Of a DNA stretch of 57,837 nt, positions 14,191-57,837 are shown piece by piece. Under the pieces are notes generated by a model that ran no database searches, was not told the DNA's origin, and was given only the letters and a program-made list of their open reading frames with translations. A program made the translations under genes and the position numbers. The stretch spans positions 1 through 57,837 of IMG/VR virus record IMGVR_UViG_3300042923_000257; one strand, written 5' to 3'. The first letter of the stretch is position 1. Each line of letters opens with the position of its first letter. Source of the DNA: a virus (Duplodnaviria > Caudoviricetes).

Positions 14191-15180
14191 TCAGTAGCCC
14201 TCGTATCTCGGCTGGAATATCAGCCGTACCTTGGCTCCCGTAGCACCAGGAAGAATGTCGACGGTGCACGTTGAATCGCCTTCGGGGAGTGACCAGAGCT
14301 GAGGGTTGGCATCAAGGTCCGGCCAGTAGTTCGTTCCTTGGTCGTCCTTCAAGGACTTGTATCCGGGTCTCGTATCAACTGTGAGAGTACGGCCTGCGGG
14401 GACAACGTCAGAGCCGTCTCCAGGAGGAGTGACCCCGAAGGACTGCCCCTCAGGACTGACGAAGGTGAAGCCCTTGATGGGCCCTTCCAGCTCCCACCGC
14501 GGCCACGCTTCGACGTCTCCCGGATTGGAGACGTCGACTGAAGAGCCCGACACCATCCCTGCGTTCAGGCGCAGGGGATAGAACGCCTCGGTCGTGGAGA
14601 AGAACGCCTGCCCGCCACCGAACTCCCACTGAGCCACCTGGACATCGTCCGAGTAGAAGTAGGGGTCGTAGGCGACGAGTTGGATCCCGAACTTCTTCCA
14701 GGTGAAGCCGGACTGGTCCTGAGCCTCACTGCCCTCCATGCCGCTCTTGTAGTAGCACTTGAGGTAGCGGGGGACTCCGTCCCCTTCCACGAACTTCAGT
14801 ACACAGAACCCCTTCTTGGGGTTCAGGGATGTCACAAGCTTCTTTTGCAGAGCCTTCACGGTCTGTCTGTCAATGCCGTGTAGGTAGATCGGGAGCATGA
14901 CTTCCCGGGCAACTGCCCGAGCATCCCGGAAGATCCCCCCATCAAGATTGGGGCTGTCATCCGAGTGCAGTTCGAACGGAGGTGCATCCAACCCCGTAGC
15001 GCCGGGCATCATGAAGATGCCCGGCCACTTCGAGTTAGAGAAGTCAGTGAGGGGGATTTCCTCCCCCTCACCGTTCTTCCCTCGGATGGATACGTATGTC
15101 CGTCCCCAATGCACCGGCTGAGGGGGCTGGGGCCCTGTGGGCGTAGGCGTGATAACCCGCCTTAGCACCGGAATAGGCAT
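14191..15180 (-). CDS. Distal tail protein (Dit-like)
   Basis: Follows tape measure; A.DPYFY, NPGDVEAWP.W...GP. Confidence 0.85.
   Translation of the reverse strand: MPIPVLRRVITPTPTGPQPPQPVHWGRTYVSIRGKNGEGEEIPLTDFSNSKWPGIFMMPGATGLDAPPFELHSDDSPNLDGGIFRDARAVAREVMLPIYLHGIDRQTVKALQKKLVTSLNPKKGFCVLKFVEGDGVPRYLKCYYKSGMEGSEAQDQSGFTWKKFGIQLVAYDPYFYSDDVQVAQWEFGGGQAFFSTTEAFYPLRLNAGMVSGSSVDVSNPGDVEAWPRWELEGPIKGFTFVSPEGQSFGVTPPGDGSDVVPAGRTLTVDTRPGYKSLKDDQGTNYWPDLDANPQLWSLPEGDSTCTVDILPGATGAKVRLIFQPRYEGY
14367..14379 (-). promoter_or_regulatory. Intragenic operator/stoperator site
   Basis: Reverse complement is GTTGATACGAGAC. Confidence 0.65.
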
Positions 15181-15195
15181 ACGTCCACCTCTTTC

Positions 15196-18100
15196 TTAGA
15201 GTCGACTGCCGTACATGGCATCAATCCACTGGAAGCCTCGGAGAATTGCCTGAGGCGTGGTCTCGTGCTTGGCTTCCTGCACCGTCACGGAAATCGGCCG
15301 ACTGCCAACCGCAAGGAGGGCTTCCGTATCCTGGTTGTTGTAGACCCGCTGTCCGCCCTTACCGAAGTCGATAAGCTCCGGCCCCTTCTCGCCCACCAGG
15401 GCGAGGCCGGGAGACGCTGAAAGCGTCCCAGTGGCGTACGCCGCGGGGATGGAAGGCTTGAAGCCGTAGGTGTCAGTGAAGAGGCTGCTATTCCAACCTC
15501 GTGCACCAGGACCGACAATGACGCCAGCACCACCACGAGACTCCACATTGACCCCATTAAGGGTGCCCGCTGTGTGACCAACACCCTTATTCGTAATGCC
15601 AATCATGAACGGGGCCTTGAGCCCGCGGATCCATCCGGAAGGAGCCTTGCTACCGGAGAATGCCCCGGTAGCCCAGCGACGGTGAGGCTTCTCACCGCGG
15701 ATAACGGATTCGATGGCGCTCATAAACCCTGAGCAGTCCCATGAAGGGTTACCGTTTCCACCCCACTGATAGGGAAGGCCGTGCTGAGTACGAGCCCAGG
15801 TAAGGGCCCGGCCAGTGCCTGGCCCACCACTCTCAATGACCTTATCGAAGTCAGGCTTCTTTGCCGTCAGCTTGTCGTCCTCGGAGAAGTCGAAAAGCCC
15901 CTTCATGTTGGGAAGGGAGTCCTTCGCCGTGGAATAGATATCGCTGACAACCTGCTCGGCATAGTCCTTGGGGCTCTGCCAGATCTCCTTCAGACCCTGC
16001 ACCGTGCTGGTTACGCCGGCATAGGATTCCTTGGTCATCTCCCAGACACCTGACAGGGCGTCCTTGATGGTGCCGTACGGGTCGGATGCAAACGACGTTG
16101 CTGAGTTGAAGAACCCCGTGATGGTGTCCCAGATGTTGTCCAGTGAGTTGGTGATTATCTTGGTGATGGCACTCGGGGAGAACATGTGCTGGAGGAAGGT
16201 GTTTCCTCGCTCCACAATGTTTCCTGAGCCCTTCCAGACATCATCCCAGAAGTGCTCACCGGCAACCGGGGCAAGGGCACCACCGATGGTGCCCAGTACC
16301 TGGCTGGCTCCGTTGGACGGAAGCCTCCGCAGAAGCGTCCAGGCGTCCTTGGACATGAAGTTCCGGACAGTATCCAGACGAACGGAGGTGTCACCACCAA
16401 TGAAGTGACCACTGTCCGTACCAGAACCGATGATGCCCCTCTGGACGCCGCCCCCGAGAGGGCGAGACGAGGAATCCATGTCCATGGTGCGGGAAGCACC
16501 AATGACGTCGACACCGAGGTTGAAGCCTCGTGCGGTGTCGATGATTCCCTGAAGACCAAGCTTCTCGATGATGCCGCCGTTAGCGAACTGCATTGCATCC
16601 CGGACACCGTGAACGCCCTTGGTGCGGGCGATCTGGTTAAGCCTGTTGACTTCCTGCTCACCGACAGCAGCGGTGAACTCGGGGCGCATGACAGCCTCAC
16701 CACCGGACAGGTCCAGCGTGCCGGCCGTGGGGCTGAAGAACCGGTGGACGTCGACACCGGGCGTGTAGCCCGGAAGAACGCCACCCATGGCCTTCTTCTT
16801 TTTCTTGCCGCCCCCTCCGCCACCAGGCGCATGCGCGGAGATGTCATTCAGGGAGCTGTTGAGGTTGTCGGCCTTGCCGTCCGCCCCGTCCAGAGCATCC
16901 TTCAAGTCCTTGACAGCCGCAATGATGCTCTTCAGGCTTCGCCCGTTGAGTGTCGTAATCCGGCCGTTCACACCAGACTTGGTGGTACCAACCGTCTTGT
17001 AGACCTCATTGGCCGCGGAGTTGAGCTGATTGAACTGCTTGCGGACATTACCGAGTCCAGCTCGGTTCAGGTTGTTCACCCTGTCCCGGACTTCCTTGAC
17101 CTTGGTCTCCAAGCCAGCAGCCGTCTTGGTGGTGTCCCGGAACTGTTCCTGAAGGGAGTTCAGGTTCTTCCGGTTGAGGTCACTTACGGCAACCGCGGCG
17201 TTGTCCGTCTTGTTCTTCAGGTCAGCGACGGTGCCCTCAGCACCGTCGATCGTCACCTTCAGTTGGGTGAGCTTCTGGTCATTCAGGTTGCCGAAGGCAG
17301 CCTTAGAATCCCGGACCTTCTCCGTCAGGCTGCGCACCTTGTCCTGGAGGTCGGAGACCTCACCAGACACCTGATTGAGGTTCTGATTGTTGAGCTGGTT
17401 CACACCCTGGGTGGCCTGAGTTACCTGCTGATTGGCGTTCTGGGCAGCACCCTGGAGGGTGTTGTTCCCCGAGCCGGCGAACTGATCCACCAACTGACGG
17501 ATGGAGACACTGTTGACTTCCCGGATCTGACGCTGAAGGTCGGTAATCCCGTCCTCAGCCTGCCTGATGGCATCCTCGGTGTCCCGGATGGACTGACGGA
17601 GCTGGTTGGACCCAGAGTCTCGACCAGTGACCCGGTCACGAGCACGAGCAACAGGACCACGGATGTCCCCGCCACGAAGCTCAGTGCGACGCTCCCGGTA
17701 GCGGTTGGTCATCCGGTCACGGATGCTCCCTGCATCTCCGTCACCACTCATGCCGGCACGGACGGCAGATCCGACCTGGCGACCTGTACGGGTGACACCT
17801 CGAAGGCCCTTGAACATGCCTGCAAGAGGAGTCAGAGCAGCACCGAGGATCTTGTTGACCTTACCCAGGAGCTTCGTCCCGAGCCCGAGAGCGATGATGA
17901 AGGGAAGAGCAGCAGCAGCCATCTTCAGGAGGTTTGCGAAGACCTCCTTCACCTGAGGATGAGCGTTCAGCCAGTCCGAGAACCACTGAATCTGATCCAC
18001 GAACGTTCCGATGGAGGAGAAGAACGTCTTGAGGAGTTCGGTGACATTGTCCTTCTGGTCGCCACCGAGTTCCTGGACCTTCTGAAGAAGGCCACCCTCG

Positions 18101-26154: not shown

Positions 26155-27741
26155 CTAGAACCCCACGACCCGACTCCTACGGCGCTTCATGCGCCCGTCG
26201 GCTATTGCGTCTGCTCTCGCCTCCAGGGCGAGAATTGCACACACCGCAAGGTCAATCTTCCTCTTCGATCGTGGGCTGTCCTTCTGAATGAGAATTCCGA
26301 CTTCACCACCAACCGTGACCTCACGAGTCACGGCATTGAGGACGTGACGAGTAAGACGCTCGTCCCCGTCGTGGCATATCTCTTTGGTCATCACCGCGGA
26401 GCGGAAACGCTCAGTGGCCTGCACCATGCGGGTTGGCTTGTTGGTCCAGAACTCGAAGACGTACTCCGTATCCCGGGTGGCAAACTGAATGGCCCACCTA
26501 CCAAGGGCCTCCTGGAAGTACGGAGGATCTCCGTAGAACCATTCGACCTTGTAGTCCCGAAAAGCCTTGTAGACCGCGGCCTCAACCGCGAGGGTGTCTA
26601 CTTCCCAATCGTCCCGAGCGTCTTTGGGACGCTCCCAGACGTCGATAACAAAGAGCTTCCCATCACTCAGCCGGCATCCAACCAGACCGGTAGCATCGCC
26701 GCGGATGGATCCATCGAACCCAATGGCGATCTGGTCACCCGGCTTGATGGGTTCGTAACTGGACGCAATGGCATCCCATTCGGACTTTGACATCCATCCG
26801 TCTGAAGACTCTGCGATCTGGTTGAAGTAGAATCGGCAGTAGGTTGAATCTGGAGTCGTCCGGTCGAAGAGAATTGTCTTCGTAAGTCCGTCAATGTCGG
26901 CCCAGGTGGCGTCTCCGTAGGCTTCAATGAGAGCCCGCTTGACGTGAGCTTCATCTCGAATCTGCTCAACTTCGATATCCCCCTCAAGGCAGTCATAGAG
27001 CCAGAATCCCTGAGCGACCATTTCGGACTCATGGATCCTCTGCGCAACGCTGTCCTCATTGGGGTTGTAAGCGTTGGTAGTGGTAACCCATCGACTTCCA
27101 GCCTTGGTGGTCTTCTCCACATTTCGCTTCAGGACCTGGTAGAAGTCAGGGCCACCGTTGGAACCAACCCAGTGGTGGACCTCGTCCATCACAACGAATG
27201 TCGGGCGGTTACCCTCATTGGTACGGCCGGCAGTCGCCTTGGGCTTGATGCTGCCGGGCTTGCCAGACTTGAACTGGACAATGCTCTTGGAGATCTCAAG
27301 TCCGTACTCCGCTTCCGCGGGGGACTCGGAGAGCATTCCTCGGATCATGTCCAAGGTCTGCTCGGTCTGGTCCAGTGCCGTTGCACCGATCTGCACAATG
27401 GGCAGAGGAACGGCCTTCCCGACCGGGAGGCCGAAAGCATCGAAGTGACTGAACCGGCAGGGCCCGAGGAACTCGGTGATAGCCAGGGCAGCCAGTAGAG
27501 GCGTCTTTCCCCAGCCCTTGGCACGTCTCAGCGTGCCCGCGGCGTACTTCCATGTCCCGTCAGGGTTGATGGCGTAGAACCACAGCACAAAGCGGAGTTG
27601 CTCGTCAGTGAACTGCCAGGGTTCACCGGCTCGTTCACCATCCGGCGTCACAACGTATTGCGTCGCCCAACGGATGATCTGGTAGCCAAGGGTTTCCTTG
27701 GGGGACGGAACGCCCGGAGGGAGATTTCCGGTCTGGGGCAT
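26155..27741 (-). CDS. terL: Terminase large subunit
   Basis: KGWGKTP Walker A, VVMDEVH Walker B, GFDGS...DATG nuclease, KIDLAV. Confidence 0.95.
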   Translation of the reverse strand: MPQTGNLPPGVPSPKETLGYQIIRWATQYVVTPDGERAGEPWQFTDEQLRFVLWFYAINPDGTWKYAAGTLRRAKGWGKTPLLAALAITEFLGPCRFSHFDAFGLPVGKAVPLPIVQIGATALDQTEQTLDMIRGMLSESPAEAEYGLEISKSIVQFKSGKPGSIKPKATAGRTNEGNRPTFVVMDEVHHWVGSNGGPDFYQVLKRNVEKTTKAGSRWVTTTNAYNPNEDSVAQRIHESEMVAQGFWLYDCLEGDIEVEQIRDEAHVKRALIEAYGDATWADIDGLTKTILFDRTTPDSTYCRFYFNQIAESSDGWMSKSEWDAIASSYEPIKPGDQIAIGFDGSIRGDATGLVGCRLSDGKLFVIDVWERPKDARDDWEVDTLAVEAAVYKAFRDYKVEWFYGDPPYFQEALGRWAIQFATRDTEYVFEFWTNKPTRMVQATERFRSAVMTKEICHDGDERLTRHVLNAVTREVTVGGEVGILIQKDSPRSKRKIDLAVCAILALEARADAIADGRMKRRRSRVVGF

Positions 27742-29736: not shown

Positions 29737-29862
29737 GAGTCTCCTAGTCGGGTTCAGGGCACTGAGACCGGTGGCAACCGTGTCTCCAACAGAAGTTCGG
29801 ATCTCTCATCTCTTCTTCTGTAGCCACGCCAACCCCCCGTTGGATGAATGAAGTTGTGTCAG

Positions 29863-29942
29863 TGCGCCGCCTTGGAATCGAACCAAGCAAGCCTCAATTG
29901 GCCAGGGCTTTACAGGCCCCGTTGTGTCCCAGCACTCAACGC
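29863..29942 (-). tRNA. Degenerate tRNA-Tyr(GTA)-like gene
   Basis: Anticodon arm GGGGC-CTGTAAA-GCCCT, variable arm, T arm CTTGG-TTCGATT-CCAAG; short D arm and weak acceptor stem. Confidence 0.6.
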
Positions 29943-30100
29943 AAGACCTCGTCCACAAGGAACGAGGTGTGTTTCAAAAGCCCATCAGGGCCAACCGCCT
30001 CACGACGGGATGTCGGATGCCACGGGGGCTGCAATAGCTCTCTCCTGCATCCTCTGTGCTCTTCTCCCGAGGCAGCCTCAGGTGCCTGAAGCACAGCCGT

Positions 30101-51834: not shown

Positions 51835-52109
51835 GGTTCGGAAGCCTGGAGTACTACCAGGAGAATGCGGACTACTGGCACAAGCAGTATCAGGAGGCTG
51901 ACCGCAGAGCCAATACCGCGGTAGCCGAAGCCAAGAAGTCCAAGGAACGGCTCCTCACCTCCATCCGGATGATGCAGACGGTCAAGGCTGAGCGGGACCA
52001 GTTTGAGGACATGCTTCACCGGATCGGCAAGCTCTACTCCTACGCCCGCGATGCCGATGAGTTCACTGAGCACGTCTACACGATTTTGGAGGATCGAAAC
52101 CGTGAATAG
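51831..52109 (+). CDS. Hypothetical coiled-coil protein
   Basis: GTGA overlap. Confidence 0.6.
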   Translation: MRFGSLEYYQENADYWHKQYQEADRRANTAVAEAKKSKERLLTSIRMMQTVKAERDQFEDMLHRIGKLYSYARDADEFTEHVYTILEDRNRE

Positions 52110-52416
52110 AAACGAACGAATTGAGTCGTACTACCAGCAGAGTGCCTGGGAGCTGGCAGAGCGGATCGTAGACCTCGAAGATTCCTTGGCTCTCTACAAG
52201 GCAAACCAGAAGATTCTCTCTGATGCGAACCTTCGGATTCAGAATCAGGGTCTTGACCCGGAGCGAGTTGAGTCGGCTCTTCGAATGTACGTAGCCGAGC
52301 TGGACTACGACATTCACAAGTACATCGAGTCCCCCGAGGACGGGGGACCGGACAGGTACCCGGAAGAGGCTGATTACTTCCTTCGGTGCTGGCACACGGC
52401 AGGGGAGGGTGTGTGA
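52102..52416 (+). CDS. Hypothetical protein
   Basis: GGAGG RBS plus GTG. Confidence 0.65.
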   Translation: MNRNERIESYYQQSAWELAERIVDLEDSLALYKANQKILSDANLRIQNQGLDPERVESALRMYVAELDYDIHKYIESPEDGGPDRYPEEADYFLRCWHTAGEGV

Positions 52417-52517
52417 CCCAAGAGGAGTGGCTTGAACTTTGGTTGCCTAAAGCCCCTGTGATTGCTGAAGAAACGCTAGACAAGATCCTGGACCTGTACG
52501 AACTCGAACGAGGCTAG
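52413..52517 (+). CDS. 34-aa micro-protein, candidate recombination directionality factor (paralogue of 54195)
   Basis: GGAGG RBS; MTQEEWLELWLPKAPVIAEETLDKILD. Confidence 0.55.
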   Translation: MTQEEWLELWLPKAPVIAEETLDKILDLYELERG

Positions 52518-52526
52518 ACAAGACTG

Positions 52527-52562
52527 AGCCCCCTCCTGGCGATTGCCGGGAGGGGGTTCTTT
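52527..52562. terminator. Terminator between the early arm and the integrase
   Basis: CCCCCTCCTGGC-GATT-GCCGGGAGGGGG-TTCTTT. Confidence 0.75.
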
Positions 52563-52568
52563 GTCGTC

Positions 52569-54065
52569 TCAGGCAGCCTCGGTGAAGACAGGCTCTACCC
52601 GGGCAGCATCGAAGTTGGCTCCCCGGCTCTTGGCCGGGTGGATCAGGACCGCGGTGAGCACCGACCTGACCACCTCGCGCTGACGCTCCAGAGACAGCCC
52701 CTGCCATCCCTTCCGGATGACGTCCTCTTGGACGGGAGCCTGAGTCTCTGCCAGATGTAGGGCCCTCTCAGCCTTCAGCCTGTCTCGGTCAGACTCCAGG
52801 TCTTCCAGGGTGGCTACGTAGATGCTGGCTCGGATCTCCCGCTTCTCCCACTTCTGCTGGAGATCCTTGATCTCCTGCTGAACCTCGTCAAGCTCTGCCT
52901 GTTTGGTCCACTCGGTGTCCTTCTTGACCTCCAGGCCGACCAGAGACCTTTCCACCGTGGCCCAGACGAGCTGACGGACCATCTTGTCTACTGGGGGACC
53001 AGTGATCTGCATACGCCCGCACTCGTCCGCCTGCCTCTTCTGGCAGGAGTAGGCGTAGGTGTCCGTCTTCTCGCCCTTCTGCCAGACCGGGGCCCCATGC
53101 ATCCGGGATCCACAACGGCCACACCGAGCGATGCCGGACAGGAGGTACTTCGTGGTGATGTCCGGCTTCGTCTTCTTCTGCCGACTGGCAATCTTGGCCA
53201 TGAGGGCTTCCCACTCGTCCACCGTGACGATGGGGGGCCAGTCACCCATGACGTAGTTGCCGTCCTTGTCCCTCATGGGCTCACCCTGGAACTTCAGGAT
53301 GCCGGCGTTACGGCAGCGCATGAGGACGCGACGGAAGTGCTCCCGGGAGAAGGGCTTACCCGTGCTGGGGTTGATGAGGTTCTCCTCAGCGAACCTCTCT
53401 AGGATTGTGGGGATGCGGTCACCTTGGATGAACCACTTGGTGCCACGGCGGATCATGTCCGCGGCCACGGGGTCCAGCTTCAGGCGGTCCTCAGGATCCC
53501 AGCCGAAGGCCGGCGTCCCTCCGTGGAACTCCCCCTTCTCCGCCATGCGCTTGGCCTCACGCCTGATCCGGCGTCTGGTGTCCTCAGAAGACTTGTTGGC
53601 GATGGAGACGAAGAGCCGAGCAGAGAAGCGGCCATCCGGGGTGTTCAGATCGAAGTTCTGGCCGGACAGGCCATCGAAGATCAGGTACCGGCCCTTCTCG
53701 TTGGCTCCCTCGTAGATGTCGATAGTTCGCTCAAGGTCCCGCGGTTGGCGGGTGTAGCGGTCGATGTCGTAGTAGAGGATGCCGTCCAGGGCCCCAGGCT
53801 TGGGGAGATCCTTCAGGAGCTGTTCGAAGCGCTTGCGCTTCACGCTCCGACTGAAGGCGGAGAGGTTGTTGTCCTCGTACCAGACGATCTCGCCGGGGGA
53901 GTAGCCGTGTCTCTCAGCAAGGGCTACGACGTCATCCTTCTGCTTCAGGACGCCCTTCCGTTCCCGCTCCTGGCCTTCCTCCTTGGTGATGTCTCCGTTC
54001 CTGACAGCACGTCGGATCTCGGCTAGGTCGGCATCGGAGATGCGCAGGTACCCTGCAATGGGCAC
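52569..54065 (-). CDS. int: Large serine integrase
   Basis: YLRIS catalytic motif, D...SA...R..FE.LL, DR..R, recombinase domain, LLSG...CG.CG Zn ribbon, coiled coil. Confidence 0.95.
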   Translation of the reverse strand: MPIAGYLRISDADLAEIRRAVRNGDITKEEGQERERKGVLKQKDDVVALAERHGYSPGEIVWYEDNNLSAFSRSVKRKRFEQLLKDLPKPGALDGILYYDIDRYTRQPRDLERTIDIYEGANEKGRYLIFDGLSGQNFDLNTPDGRFSARLFVSIANKSSEDTRRRIRREAKRMAEKGEFHGGTPAFGWDPEDRLKLDPVAADMIRRGTKWFIQGDRIPTILERFAEENLINPSTGKPFSREHFRRVLMRCRNAGILKFQGEPMRDKDGNYVMGDWPPIVTVDEWEALMAKIASRQKKTKPDITTKYLLSGIARCGRCGSRMHGAPVWQKGEKTDTYAYSCQKRQADECGRMQITGPPVDKMVRQLVWATVERSLVGLEVKKDTEWTKQAELDEVQQEIKDLQQKWEKREIRASIYVATLEDLESDRDRLKAERALHLAETQAPVQEDVIRKGWQGLSLERQREVVRSVLTAVLIHPAKSRGANFDAARVEPVFTEAA

Positions 54066-54120
54066 GACGAAAACCCCCCAGACACTGGTGACACGGTGGT
54101 CAGATCAGTGTAGCGGGGAG

Positions 54121-54170
54121 TACAGTGTTCTTGGAACTCTTGCATGTGCGGGGGTTCCAGGATCTCCGTA
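54121..54170. other. Predicted attP (50 bp, central TG at 54145-54146)
   Basis: Imperfect inverted repeat with 17/24 symmetric positions, ~55 bp upstream of int. Confidence 0.65.
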
Positions 54171-54194
54171 TACGAGCCGGGAGGCTGACCAGGC

Positions 54195-54308
54195 ATGATG
54201 ACAGCTAGTGAGTGGGTTGATCACTGGACGCAACAGGCTCCCCTCATCCCTCCGGACCGTCTGCGGGATCTGATCGACAGCATCGCAGAGGACGAGGAAG
54301 AGGAGTAG
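54195..54308 (+). CDS. 37-aa micro-protein (paralogue of 52413)
   Basis: GGAGG RBS; MMTASEWVDHWTQQAPLIPPDRLRDLID. Confidence 0.6.
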   Translation: MMTASEWVDHWTQQAPLIPPDRLRDLIDSIAEDEEEE

Positions 54309-54310
54309 CC

Positions 54311-54541
54311 ATGACGGCCCCGAAGCGCGTCACCAAGAACCTGTCCGTCATGAGGACGGACGACCTGGACCGGAACCTGAGGGTCATCCGGGAGACAGGG
54401 AAGGATCAGTCCGAGGCCACCAGGTGGGCTCTGTACGTGGTTGCCAACATCCTTCAGCACGCGTGGCACAACGGTCACGCGGAGCGGGGAGTCATCCCGG
54501 AGATGCGAGTCATCTTCCCCAAGGAGCCGGCTGAGCAGTAG
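54311..54541 (+). CDS. Small putative ribbon-helix-helix DNA-binding protein
   Basis: AGGAG RBS; NLSV..TDDLDRNL.......SEA.R.AL. Confidence 0.6.
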   Translation: MTAPKRVTKNLSVMRTDDLDRNLRVIRETGKDQSEATRWALYVVANILQHAWHNGHAERGVIPEMRVIFPKEPAEQ

Positions 54542-54658
54542 TCAGCACTCTGCGGAGCGTCTCACTGATCATGGATTAGGAGGAAGCCCGAACCATCGGG
54601 TAATGTTCAGGTCGTCGCAAGGAGCCCCGGTGGCAAGACGGGGCTCTGACGAACACCA

Positions 54659-54740
54659 GGCGGTGTGCCCGAGCGGCCAAAGGGAGCAGACTGTAAATCT
54701 GCCGGCTCAGCCTTCCCAGGTTCGAATCCTGGCGCCGCCA
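54659..54740 (+). tRNA. tRNA-Tyr(GTA)
   Basis: Canonical cloverleaf GGCGGTG...GCAGA-CTGTAAA-TCTGC...CCAGG-TTCGAAT-CCTGG-CGCCGCCA; -10 TAATGT at 54601. Confidence 0.95.
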
Positions 54741-54749
54741 CACTAGTAG

Positions 54750-54965
54750 GCCCCTCCCTTCGGGGAGGGGCTTTCTGCTGTCTGGGGACACGAAGAAGAA
54801 GCCCTCCCGGTCTGTTAGTCCGGGAGGGCTCTTCTTATGGGGAACCCTCAGCCTCAGCCCCCAGCCAGCCGGCTGGTAGCCCATACGAGGAGTCTGAGGG
54901 GCCGGCCCCACAAGTAAGAAGTCCCCTCTGGACTCAAAGGGTTTGTACACGCAGAGGGGGACTTC
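54750..54965. terminator. Three successive terminator-like hairpins
   Basis: 54750-54775 (TTCG loop), 54793-54836, 54918-54965. Confidence 0.7.
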
Positions 54966-55026: not shown

Positions 55027-55236
55027 CTAGACGAGGCTGCCCTTCTGCACGGCGCTGATGAAGCTGCCCCAGGCGGTGTCAGCGAAGACGACCGCGGGGC
55101 CGGCAGGGGCCTTGGAGTCCCGGACAGGCATAGCCGCGGGGATGGCTCCGTGAGCCACCTCAACACAGTCGTTACTTCCTCCGCTGTAGCTGGACTTGGT
55201 CCAGCCGTTCAGTGCGGATGCATTGTCGATGATCAT
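55027..55236 (-). CDS. DUF397 (BldB/Scr2-like) protein
   Basis: W.KSSYS....CVEVA....VRDSK...GP...F....W..F. Confidence 0.95.
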   Translation of the reverse strand: MIIDNASALNGWTKSSYSGGSNDCVEVAHGAIPAAMPVRDSKAPAGPAVVFADTAWGSFISAVQKGSLV

Positions 55237-56087
55237 TAGATCGCGTCCTTCAGTTGTTCAATGAGGTTGGCCGATTCATCGAGAGGCAAGGCCGCGGCAC
55301 GTAGATGCTCGTAGGCCGAGCCGTATCGACTTACTTCCGCAGGATCCTCCACATACAGAGCACTCGTCAGGGACTCAACCAGGACAACGTCCAGGTCTGC
55401 CGTCTCCGGGAAGCCGATGACAGCGAATGAGCCGCTCATCCCGACGTGCGGGGGAGCGTCCAGAGGCAGTACCTGTATCGAGACGTGCGGAAGCTCTTGT
55501 TTGTCCAGCAGCCATTGGAGCTGCTCCTTCATCATCCCGGGGTCGCTCTTCAGGTGAGGGTGAAGAGCTGCCTCATGGATGACTGCCCACAGCTCCAGAG
55601 GCTCCGGGCGGGATAGGACCGACTGACGAGCCCGGCGAACGTCTACCAGGGAGTTCACCTGTTCAGGCGTGGCAGTCATGTTGATTGCGCTGATGGTGGC
55701 GCGGGCGTAGGCCGCGGTCTGAAGCAGGCCCGGGATGAGCGTGGCTTGGTAGGTCCGCAGGTTGACTGCGTCATCCTCCAGGCTGATCAGGTCTTCGTAG
55801 GCCGGGGAGATGATGCCGCGGTAGGTCTGCCACCAGCCGCGCTTCTTACCGTCCCGGGCGAACATGTGGAGGGCATCCCGCTTCTCCGGGTCGGTGATCT
55901 CGTAGAGGTCCAGAAGAACATTGAGGTCAACCGGCCGGATCCCCAGCACGGCCTTCTCAACCCTGCTGACCTTGGACGGAGTTAGGTCTGTTTGGGCTGC
56001 TACGTCGTCCAGCTTCAGGCCCTTGGCTTCCCGGGCTGTCCGCAGCTCGGAGCCGAGTCGACGCGTCCGAACCGTGGGCTCTGCCAT
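55236..56087 (-). CDS. XRE-HTH + DUF5753 regulator (WhiJ/Scr1-like)
   Basis: RRLG.ELR..RE, GWWQ.Y, IPGLLQT..YARA, R..RQ..L, E.AL, IQV.P. Confidence 0.93.
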   Translation of the reverse strand: MAEPTVRTRRLGSELRTAREAKGLKLDDVAAQTDLTPSKVSRVEKAVLGIRPVDLNVLLDLYEITDPEKRDALHMFARDGKKRGWWQTYRGIISPAYEDLISLEDDAVNLRTYQATLIPGLLQTAAYARATISAINMTATPEQVNSLVDVRRARQSVLSRPEPLELWAVIHEAALHPHLKSDPGMMKEQLQWLLDKQELPHVSIQVLPLDAPPHVGMSGSFAVIGFPETADLDVVLVESLTSALYVEDPAEVSRYGSAYEHLRAAALPLDESANLIEQLKDAI

Positions 56088-56289
56088 GCGCACCCCCTTC
56101 TACCTGTCCATTCTTCGCCCAACTCTGGTGCGTGGCTACAGCTTTCCACAGTCGGCCAGACCATGCCCTGATCCGACTGCAATTTTGCTGAGTTGGTTCA
56201 ACGGGTTGCATCCGGGGTACGACTTTGGACACACTGTTAGTGCCAGTCCGCGTACAGTGGGTGATCACATGCAGGGATTAGGAGGCGCC

Positions 56290-57064: not shown

Positions 57065-57250
57065 ATGGCTGTCAGCCGCAATCGAGTGCCCACCCCTCGT
57101 GATCTAGCCGAGGATGAGTGGAGGATGGACACAGCCCGGGGGCGTCGATACTGCCGGGTGCACCCCCAGCAGCAGATGATCCCCCTCGCCGTGGGCGATG
57201 TGTGTCCTCTGCCTCATGGCGAGACCCACGAGAAGGCTGATAGCCGATAA
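57065..57250 (+). CDS. Hypothetical protein
   Basis: AGGAG RBS; C..H........CP..H. Confidence 0.6.
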   Translation: MAVSRNRVPTPRDLAEDEWRMDTARGRRYCRVHPQQQMIPLAVGDVCPLPHGETHEKADSR

Positions 57251-57750: not shown

Positions 57751-57837
57751 GATCGAAGGAAGGCGCCCCCGGGCTGTGTCCATCCTCCACTCATCCTCGG
57801 CTAGATCACGAGGGGTGGGCACTCGATTGCGGCTGAC
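57751..57837. other. Terminal overlap plus inverted duplication (likely assembly chimera)
   Basis: 57751-57772 equals 1-22; 57764-57837 is the exact reverse complement of 57071-57144. Confidence 0.8.

Follow-up and report, generated by a model that had tools for sequence, protein, structure and literature searches.

A conserved microprotein pair flanking the integrase gene of a temperate phage, with a possible role in recombination directionality

Two micro-ORFs beside a serine integrase

Why would a temperate phage keep two related genes of fewer than forty codons, one on each side of its integrase gene and attachment site? We address this question in a siphovirus-like, temperate Streptomyces phage, IMG/VR record IMGVR_UViG_3300042923_000257. 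The whole genome record, complete at 57,837 bp, is hereafter called the window, and positions are counted from its first base. It encodes a large serine integrase (Int), and an earlier note on this DNA had pointed to two very short open reading frames (ORFs), A and B, flanking int and the phage attachment site attP, proposing that they are two recombination directionality factors (RDFs) or an RDF and its antagonist. We found that A and B are genuine, conserved genes for a pair of microproteins not described before, and that the pair is tied to one clade of serine integrases. An RDF-type role is the best-supported reading of the pair, plausible but unproven. The elements of the region are:

52413-52517, plus strand: ORF A, a 34-aa acidic microprotein with a GTG start, at the end of the early arm and convergent with the 3' end of int.
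52526-52559, no strand: GC-rich terminator-like hairpin separating the convergent genes A and int, with a 15-pair stem followed by a T-run.
52569-54065, minus strand: int, encoding a large serine integrase of 498 aa (Pfam Resolvase 4.6e-12, Recombinase 2.9e-09, Zn_ribbon_recom 3.8e-10; phrog_95 integrase 3.2e-73).
54121-54170, no strand: attP core, an imperfect inverted repeat with arms of 24 nt each at 54121-54144 and 54147-54170 and a central TG at 54145-54146.
54195-54308, plus strand: ORF B, divergent from int; its very acidic product, of 37 aa or, counted from the second ATG, 36 aa, has a C-terminal tail that is acidic too.

The 24+2+24 repeat with its central TG is the attP anatomy of a serine integrase, and both its centre and its arm layout are kept in five phage genomes. 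Since the window covers the entire genome record, attP is intact here. In what follows, A-type denotes the copy that keeps its convergent position at the int 3' end and B-type the copy across attP.

ORF A and ORF B are paralogous genes

The 10/27 ungapped identities that the earlier note had counted between A and B held when recounted by eye, and scoring against the rest of the genome led to the same pairing. Aligned by Smith-Waterman, A and B score 61, against 37 for the next best of the 1038 stop-to-stop ORFs of 25-80 aa in the window, and the two are reciprocal top matches. None of 20,000 shuffles of B attained 61 (mean 22.2, sd 4.7).

The gene context described earlier was likewise borne out. 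Each ORF is preceded by GGAGG, located at 52404-52408 for A and at 54180-54184 for B, in the latter case 10 nt upstream of the start. The start of A overlaps the TGA stop of the upstream ORF 52003-52416 (GTGA), and A is the terminal gene of the rightward early/replication arm, which includes ribonucleotide reductase and DNA polymerase; this is the end-of-lytic-arm position claimed for it. The first ATG of B lies 25 bp beyond the outer edge of the attP repeat, the distance previously given, and about 48 nt from the crossover.

Both ORFs evolve as coding sequences. The ratio of nonsynonymous to synonymous substitution rates (dN/dS) in close pairs is 0.17-0.36 for A and 0.06-0.15 for B, with 0.13 for int, and it is 0.17-0.35 among four prophage copies of B. 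The nearest named phage is the Streptomyces phage Ibantik, whose integrase is 52.5% identical to that of the window (other phage integrases reach at most 33%); for A, this distant pair gives a dN/dS of 0.11. Two close relatives from IMG/VR, Ibantik itself, and a contig resembling it all keep the starts, the stops, and the coupling to neighbouring genes of both ORFs. Judged by these comparisons, both are genuine genes under purifying selection. The GenBank record of Ibantik annotates the A copy as gp6 (hypothetical protein) and leaves the B copy unannotated; the latter is a 35-aa micro-ORF at 1717-1824 on the minus strand (L001, NC_073462.1) that overlaps the start of gp4.

Conservation over such short stretches might also be imposed by DNA or RNA elements, such as integrase sites flanking att, terminators, or leaders, and both the closeness of B to the crossover and the terminator hairpin after A would suit that explanation. 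However, most changes are synonymous (dN/dS 0.06-0.36), starts and stops persist despite DNA divergence, and a protein profile recovers the copies at the expected places in the genomes with E-values down to 1e-16. We consider a non-coding cause of the conservation very improbable. A leader-peptide or attenuation reading of the two Trp codons was rejected, because A ends its operon before a terminator and B stands alone in 7 of the 13 elements described below.

The two peptides define what is, by sequence comparison, a previously undescribed family of microproteins of about 32-43 residues. Its members follow the pattern Met, [T/S], two variable residues, [E/D]-W-[LIV], two variable residues, [W/Q/H/R], three variable residues, A-P, and then a second amphipathic stretch. 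W7, W11, A15, and P16 of B are invariant or nearly so. Many A-type copies have Q, R, or H in place of the second conserved Trp. The C-terminal tails differ as well: 12 of the 13 B copies have an acidic one, and those of A copies are neutral or basic.

Relatives are few and short. A word-indexed search of 5.8 billion proteins returned 27 of them, of 32-52 aa, with no Pfam domain and with "hypothetical protein" as the name of all that have one. An exhaustive profile search of 1.84 billion representatives gave 67 matches (E <= 0.001), 61 of them at most 86 aa long. Among the longer ones, P0058 (140 aa) and P0081 (307 aa) each carry a single profile match at one terminus; three matches of 927, 1566, and 519 aa were set aside, as each consists of 6-9 short matching stretches that look like repeat noise. 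Longer or fused forms were absent among 8000 scored candidates of 77-2000 aa at E <= 0.01, which is weak evidence by the method's own rating. Neither A nor B matched Pfam-A or PHROGs v4 at E <= 1, and the best match of the peptide to chains of the Protein Data Bank (PDB) had an E-value of 0.093, giving no sequence relative there. In the literature searched, the peptide family and the integrase system of Ibantik are unmentioned, although supplementary tables might list similar predicted RDFs.

The family follows one clade of integrases

Both copies flank int in all five phage genomes or viral contigs. Alignment of the integrase led to five Streptomyces chromosomes with integrases 45-49% identical, and in 5/5 a family member is convergent with the int 3' end. 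A profile search of these whole genomes detected, in each, a second and better-scoring copy on the same strand 50-55 kb away. Among 401 sampled Streptomyces genomes, 37 had an integrase homologue (E <= 1e-80), and three more genomes in the 47-50% identity tier again carried both copies, 53-69 kb apart. In total, both copies are found in 8/8 prophages with integrases 45-50% identical, 50-69 kb apart and at opposite prophage ends, just as the earlier note had expected integration to place them. A terminase 63-81% identical to that of the window lies between the copies in 5/5 prophages tested, indicating that these prophages are integrated relatives of the window phage with the paralogues at their opposite ends. 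Every element with an integrase at least 45% identical (13/13) has both copies.

At greater distance only the A-type copy follows the integrase. Of the 25 loci in the 37-41% identity tier, 15 have an A-type micro-ORF, recognized by motif, at the int 3' end, mostly 2-50 nt from the int stop, and the profile added three strong matches and one weak match, bringing the count to 19/25. A window-like terminase was not found in 5/5 genomes tested from this tier. Because A-type genes accompany these integrases without such a terminase, they appear to be widespread partners of the clade across differing mobile elements. The upstream neighbour of A and the downstream neighbour of B vary, while the adjacency of both to int and attP is constant. 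Beside integrases 28-33% identical, the family profile had no match (0/4: Yosif, Celia, Conan, PegLeg), and a tblastn search of 50,697 phage records found A and B in Ibantik alone. This survey of other serine integrases, which the earlier note had called for, reveals co-inheritance with one integrase clade and absence beside unrelated integrases, a pattern expected of RDFs.

The distribution suggests that B looks like a duplicate confined to the lineage of ~55-kb phages. In a tree built from 31 peptides of both types, copies of one type group together (2 changes; 0/500 shuffles that low). Its 36 columns, which leave 16 of 28 forks open, are too few to order the duplication.

Some loci of this survey had features of their own. 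In the prophages of G187 and G047 (L044 2970-3351 and L045 1087-1490), 380-400 nt separate the A-type gene from the int stop, against about 50 nt or less elsewhere. In the mycobacteriophage PegLeg (integrase 28% identical; L042 3964-4065), the 33-codon gp133 is convergent with the int 3' end and has no profile match. At 14405-16001 of locus L112 (G392:C1:4456000-4475900), which belongs to the 37-41% tier, int and an A-type gene adjoin dCTP-deaminase-like and phosphoribosyltransferase genes; the module may be a small integrative island with nucleotide-depletion defence cargo. The same chromosome encodes an extra family member (G392:C1:1135255-1135329, E 1.3e-6) 3.3 Mb from the integrase-linked copy.

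Integration sites and the sequence upstream of ORF B

The integrated relatives use at least four types of bacterial attachment site (attB), namely ung, a gene of the inositol-monophosphatase family, an aldehyde dehydrogenase gene, and a small Cys-rich ORF. The inositol-monophosphatase type is represented by five prophages with a 12-bp common core on both sides. Here attB lies within the Inositol_P-family gene, which is truncated at profile position 217 of 271, and the 5' part of this host gene reads into B from ~50 nt upstream of its start, with no terminator seen between them.

The type closest to the window is preserved in one remnant, L011 (3600-4700). Its attP arm on the int side is preserved up to the TG, where host ung takes over, and the N-terminal 76 residues of the uracil-DNA glycosylase read into int. 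The first 62 residues of its integrase are 82% identical to those of the window, after which the gene is cut by a transposase-like ORF. This single remnant points to ung as the attB gene used by phages of the window type. At the two remaining types the host gene is not directed at B: the 3' part of the small Cys-rich ORF (G187, G047) and the 3' end of the aldehyde dehydrogenase gene (G190) stand antisense upstream of B, and in both cases the host 5' part reads into int (read by eye). The Samy prophage (PMC12924846) was considered as the identity of this element and ruled out, since its attB differs (a radical-SAM gene) and it is phiC31-like.

Integration thus always swaps the sequence upstream of B, and only one attB type out of four points a host gene toward B. 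The earlier note had claimed that integration alters the upstream context of the second copy, so that the host could drive excision. The first part is correct throughout; the inference of host-driven excision is not general.

ORF B is predicted to bind the integrase at the base of its coiled coil

The earlier note had also proposed modelling the peptides with the coiled coil of the integrase. We predicted the complex of Int residues 290-498 (9-row alignment) with B (19-row alignment) in three runs, alongside three controls that combined unrelated 37-residue partners and an unrelated bait. The interaction prediction score from aligned errors (ipSAE) was 0.70, 0.68, and 0.68 for B (median 0.68) and 0.07, 0.00, and 0.01 for the controls. 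The scoring mark is attained by 58/80 solved complexes and by 2/110 mismatched pairs, a calibration that is only rough here, given the custom alignments. Between runs, at least 82% of contacts agree, and the predicted local distance difference test (pLDDT) of the partner is at least 74. As the peptide has no PDB relative, its side of the complex score is free of any solved homologue.

The predicted contacts on Int fall at 358-378, 445-469, and 486-497. AlphaFold modelling of residues 290-498 puts the coiled-coil helices at 389-407 and 413-441, so the contact segments correspond to the helix preceding the coiled coil, the segment following it, and the last strand. On the peptide side, W7, W11, A15, and P16 are all in the contact list. 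Invariant Int residues were not enriched at the interface (6/36 against 32/209 overall, counted by hand). B is predicted to sit on the second DNA-binding domain (DBD2) where the coiled coil emerges, a placement that the model supports without demonstrating it. According to Shin et al. (PMC12286644) and Alsaleh et al. (PMC11795197), this DBD2/coiled-coil junction is the common RDF-binding site. For B, the modelling proposed in the earlier note thus predicts binding at the site known from RDFs, with a median of 0.68 against 0.07 for the best control.

These results also bear on the idea that A and B are hitch-hikers, that is, small phage genes encoding regulators, exclusion factors, or host-modulating peptides that are kept because int and attP move as a block. 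Early regions of phages often encode small, acidic, helical peptides, and a structure model is able to dock amphipathic helices onto helical surfaces. Against this, the far-side neighbours vary while adjacency to int and attP is constant down to 37% integrase identity and across four attB specificities, and the unrelated 37-residue partners and bait scored 0.00-0.07. Hitch-hiking is accordingly an improbable origin of the linkage.

A model for the action of A and B

We propose that A and B act as a dedicated cofactor, of RDF type, for one clade of Streptomyces large serine integrases, a reading that we hold tentatively and place close to, but short of, an even chance. The conserved Trp/Ala-Pro face would pack on the DBD2 helices that flank the coiled-coil insertion and on the C-terminal strand, which is the known RDF site, and binding would bias the coiled coil toward attL x attR synapsis and away from attP x attB. 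That A binds as B is predicted to, that binding affects direction, and that the two copies divide the labour is what we infer from these data. The A-type peptide would be the ancestral partner, always at the int 3' end. In phages it closes the early lytic operon, and it would therefore be produced on induction and trigger excision; its position at the end of the early arm fits expression on induction or during lytic growth. B would have arisen by duplication in the lineage of ~55-kb siphoviruses. It lies ~50 nt from the crossover, so that all sequence upstream of it changes on integration, and it most likely binds the same site, acting while attP is intact, either after excision or on infection.

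A bolder version of this model would make the pair a two-key directionality latch derived from one duplicated integrase-binding peptide of ~35 residues, in which the state of the att site gates which paralogue is present. A, made from the lytic operon in the prophage, would fire excision. The 5' region of B is rebuilt only when attP re-forms, again because the crossover is ~50 nt away, and B would then be made only from an excised or incoming genome. At the same DBD2/coiled-coil site, it would either bar re-integration or time integration after infection. We regard such a latch as doubtful.

A different division of labour would pair an RDF with an antagonist, both using the same integrase site. 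One paralogue, most likely A, would reorient the coiled coil, and B would block or titrate A, shielding integration after infection or stabilising the prophage. This would agree with an interface motif common to both copies combined with tails that differ systematically (acidic in 12/13 for B, neutral or basic for A), and with the rewiring of the upstream context of B by integration. A factor made in the lysogen would be in keeping with the inositol-monophosphatase type, in which a truncated host gene leads into B and no terminator was seen on the way; the host gene reads into B in just one of the four attB types, however, and the two paralogous factors of Int30 are both activators in the account of PMC12286644. 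On balance we think an antagonist quite unlikely.

Several observations weigh against an RDF-type role. The RDFs of phiC31, Bxb1, and TG1 are larger, moonlighting replication proteins (as described in PMC11795197), and such a larger RDF may be encoded elsewhere in this genome. A micro-ORF is missing, by motif and profile, from 6/25 loci of the 37-41% tier, and a second copy was not found near int in 7/7 genomes searched from that tier, so part of the clade does without the pair. Genes that share one mobile module are also co-inherited irrespective of function. The dN/dS of B between the window and Ibantik is 0.70, a value from a divergent pair with few sites, and a scan of 52300-54900 for promoters of the sigma-70 type detected none for B or int. 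The replacement of the second Trp in A-type copies means that A may bind differently or not at all. As for the complex, it was modelled with B alone and against Int 290-498 only, the model of this integrase fragment is moderately confident (mean pLDDT 65), and 4 of 11 tested virtual-pulldown predictions in PMC12286644 were false positives.

In another reading, A and B are integrase-linked microproteins with no part in directionality, which could instead affect integrase level, folding, oligomerisation, or DNA binding, or couple the integrase to a partner such as the 76-aa protein encoded downstream of B or a host factor. The true RDF, possibly a moonlighting protein, would then lie elsewhere. 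Strict synteny and predicted binding leave the consequence of binding unspecified, and larger, replication-linked RDFs are known in Streptomyces phages (PMC11795197, PMC5311408), with a full replication arm present here. Yet the predicted site is precisely the DBD2/coiled-coil junction used by RDFs, and A-type genes stand at the int 3' end in 15-19/25 loci of the 37-41% tier, with window-like terminase not found in 5/5 genomes; L112, one such locus, has metabolic-looking genes on the A side. We judge a role outside directionality, including coupling to a partner, to be rather unlikely.

Genomic surroundings

Other parts of the genome are consistent with a siphovirus-like organization. The structural arm runs leftward and encodes the terminase large subunit (26155-27741), portal, major head protein, tape measure, and minor tail proteins. 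The early arm runs rightward, and int follows ORF A on the opposite strand. Just upstream of int, the imperfect inverted repeat 54075-54087 / 54106-54118 was dropped as a candidate terminator or hairpin sequestering the ribosome-binding site, as it is not significant: its RNA fold has -23.2 kcal/mol and z = -1.33, and 20/200 shuffles fold equally well. Downstream of B lies a further gene:

54311-54541, plus strand: 76-aa ORF, beginning 2 nt past the B stop, phrog_14620 (unknown function).

In relatives this ORF overlaps the B stop, and a homologue follows B in 6/13 elements, so that it is no constant partner of B. Its product may be ribbon-helix-helix-like, a guess from sequence pattern; it had no Pfam match and no PDB sequence match, and its AlphaFold model, of low confidence (pLDDT 56), has two helices.

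Two tRNA-Tyr(GTA) genes of differing sequence are present in the window, one at 29862-29947 (minus strand), at the junction of the structural and early arms, and the other at 54659-54741 (plus strand), directly after the operon of B and the 76-aa ORF and absent from the close relative L002. A lysogeny-side region at 55027-56093 (minus strand) encodes a DUF397 protein and an HTH_31+DUF5753 regulator, the latter matching phrog_9908, and L002 has the pair as well. Gene pairs of DUF397 with HTH_31/DUF5753 are typical of Streptomyces chromosomes. Finally, a perfect 74-nt inverted repeat occupies 57071-57144 and 57764-57837, its second arm ending where the record ends; either a genuine terminal feature or an assembly fold-back artefact could account for it.

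Significance

RDFs are a bottleneck for the reversible use of serine integrases, since few are known, they have no common fold, and they are hard to find, as discussed in PMC5311408 and PMC12286644. If A or B proved to be an RDF, it would have 34-37 residues, fewer than the 58-110 aa of the small RDFs listed by Fogg et al. A simple sequence signature would identify its relatives, and natural variants of integrase, peptide, and att would be at hand, covering at least four attB specificities. A diverged paralogue pair that straddles attP would be a tractable system in which to study the decision to excise against the decision not to re-integrate. Our findings are also a warning for annotation: the B gene of Ibantik is unannotated, and genes this short escape the usual ORF cut-offs.

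Comparison with known systems

In their candidate functional class and in the region of the integrase that they would target, A and B resemble phiC31 gp3 and the RDFs of TG1 and Bxb1 (PMC11795197, PMC5814800). The similarity ends there, as those proteins have ~250 aa and replication-linked primary functions and are encoded far from int according to PMC5311408 and PMC11795197. Small RDFs are closer in scale. SprB of SPbeta, Rv1584c of phiRv1, ORF7 of TP901-1, and the RDF of A118 are short and encoded within a few genes of int, and the RDFs of these four systems are predicted or shown to act on DBD2 near the coiled-coil junction, as reported in PMC12286644 and PMC5311408. The 34-37 aa of A and B are below the range of 58-110 aa that Fogg et al. 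(PMC5311408) give for small RDFs, and no Pfam, PHROG, or PDB relation was found.

The layout of B has an exact counterpart in phiJoe. There the small RDF gp52 of a Streptomyces phage is encoded divergently from int across attP, which places the two genes at opposite prophage ends (Fogg et al. 2017, PMC5311408), and we confirmed this layout from the genome. The same paper reports gp52 homologues solely beside the cognate integrase clade. The proteins themselves differ, since gp52 has 62 aa and is, according to its authors (PMC5311408), distantly similar to the phiRv1 RDF. Comparing gp52 with the alignment of 26 family sequences by hhalign detected no homology (probability 0.4%, E 0.16, 14 columns), and the phiJoe integrase is 26% identical to that of the window. 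The phiJoe interval between int and the convergent thyX lacks an annotated micro-ORF, and a paralogous pair is not known from this phage.

The one reported precedent for two RDFs comes from the Int30 phage, in which two similar, functional RDFs act on one large serine integrase, a finding that Shin et al. (2025, PMC12286644) call surprising. As in the window, two sequence-similar proteins are encoded by one phage. The present pair, known here from sequence and structural modelling, differs in its ~30% identity and distinct tails, in flanking attP, and in being kept together over 13 elements.

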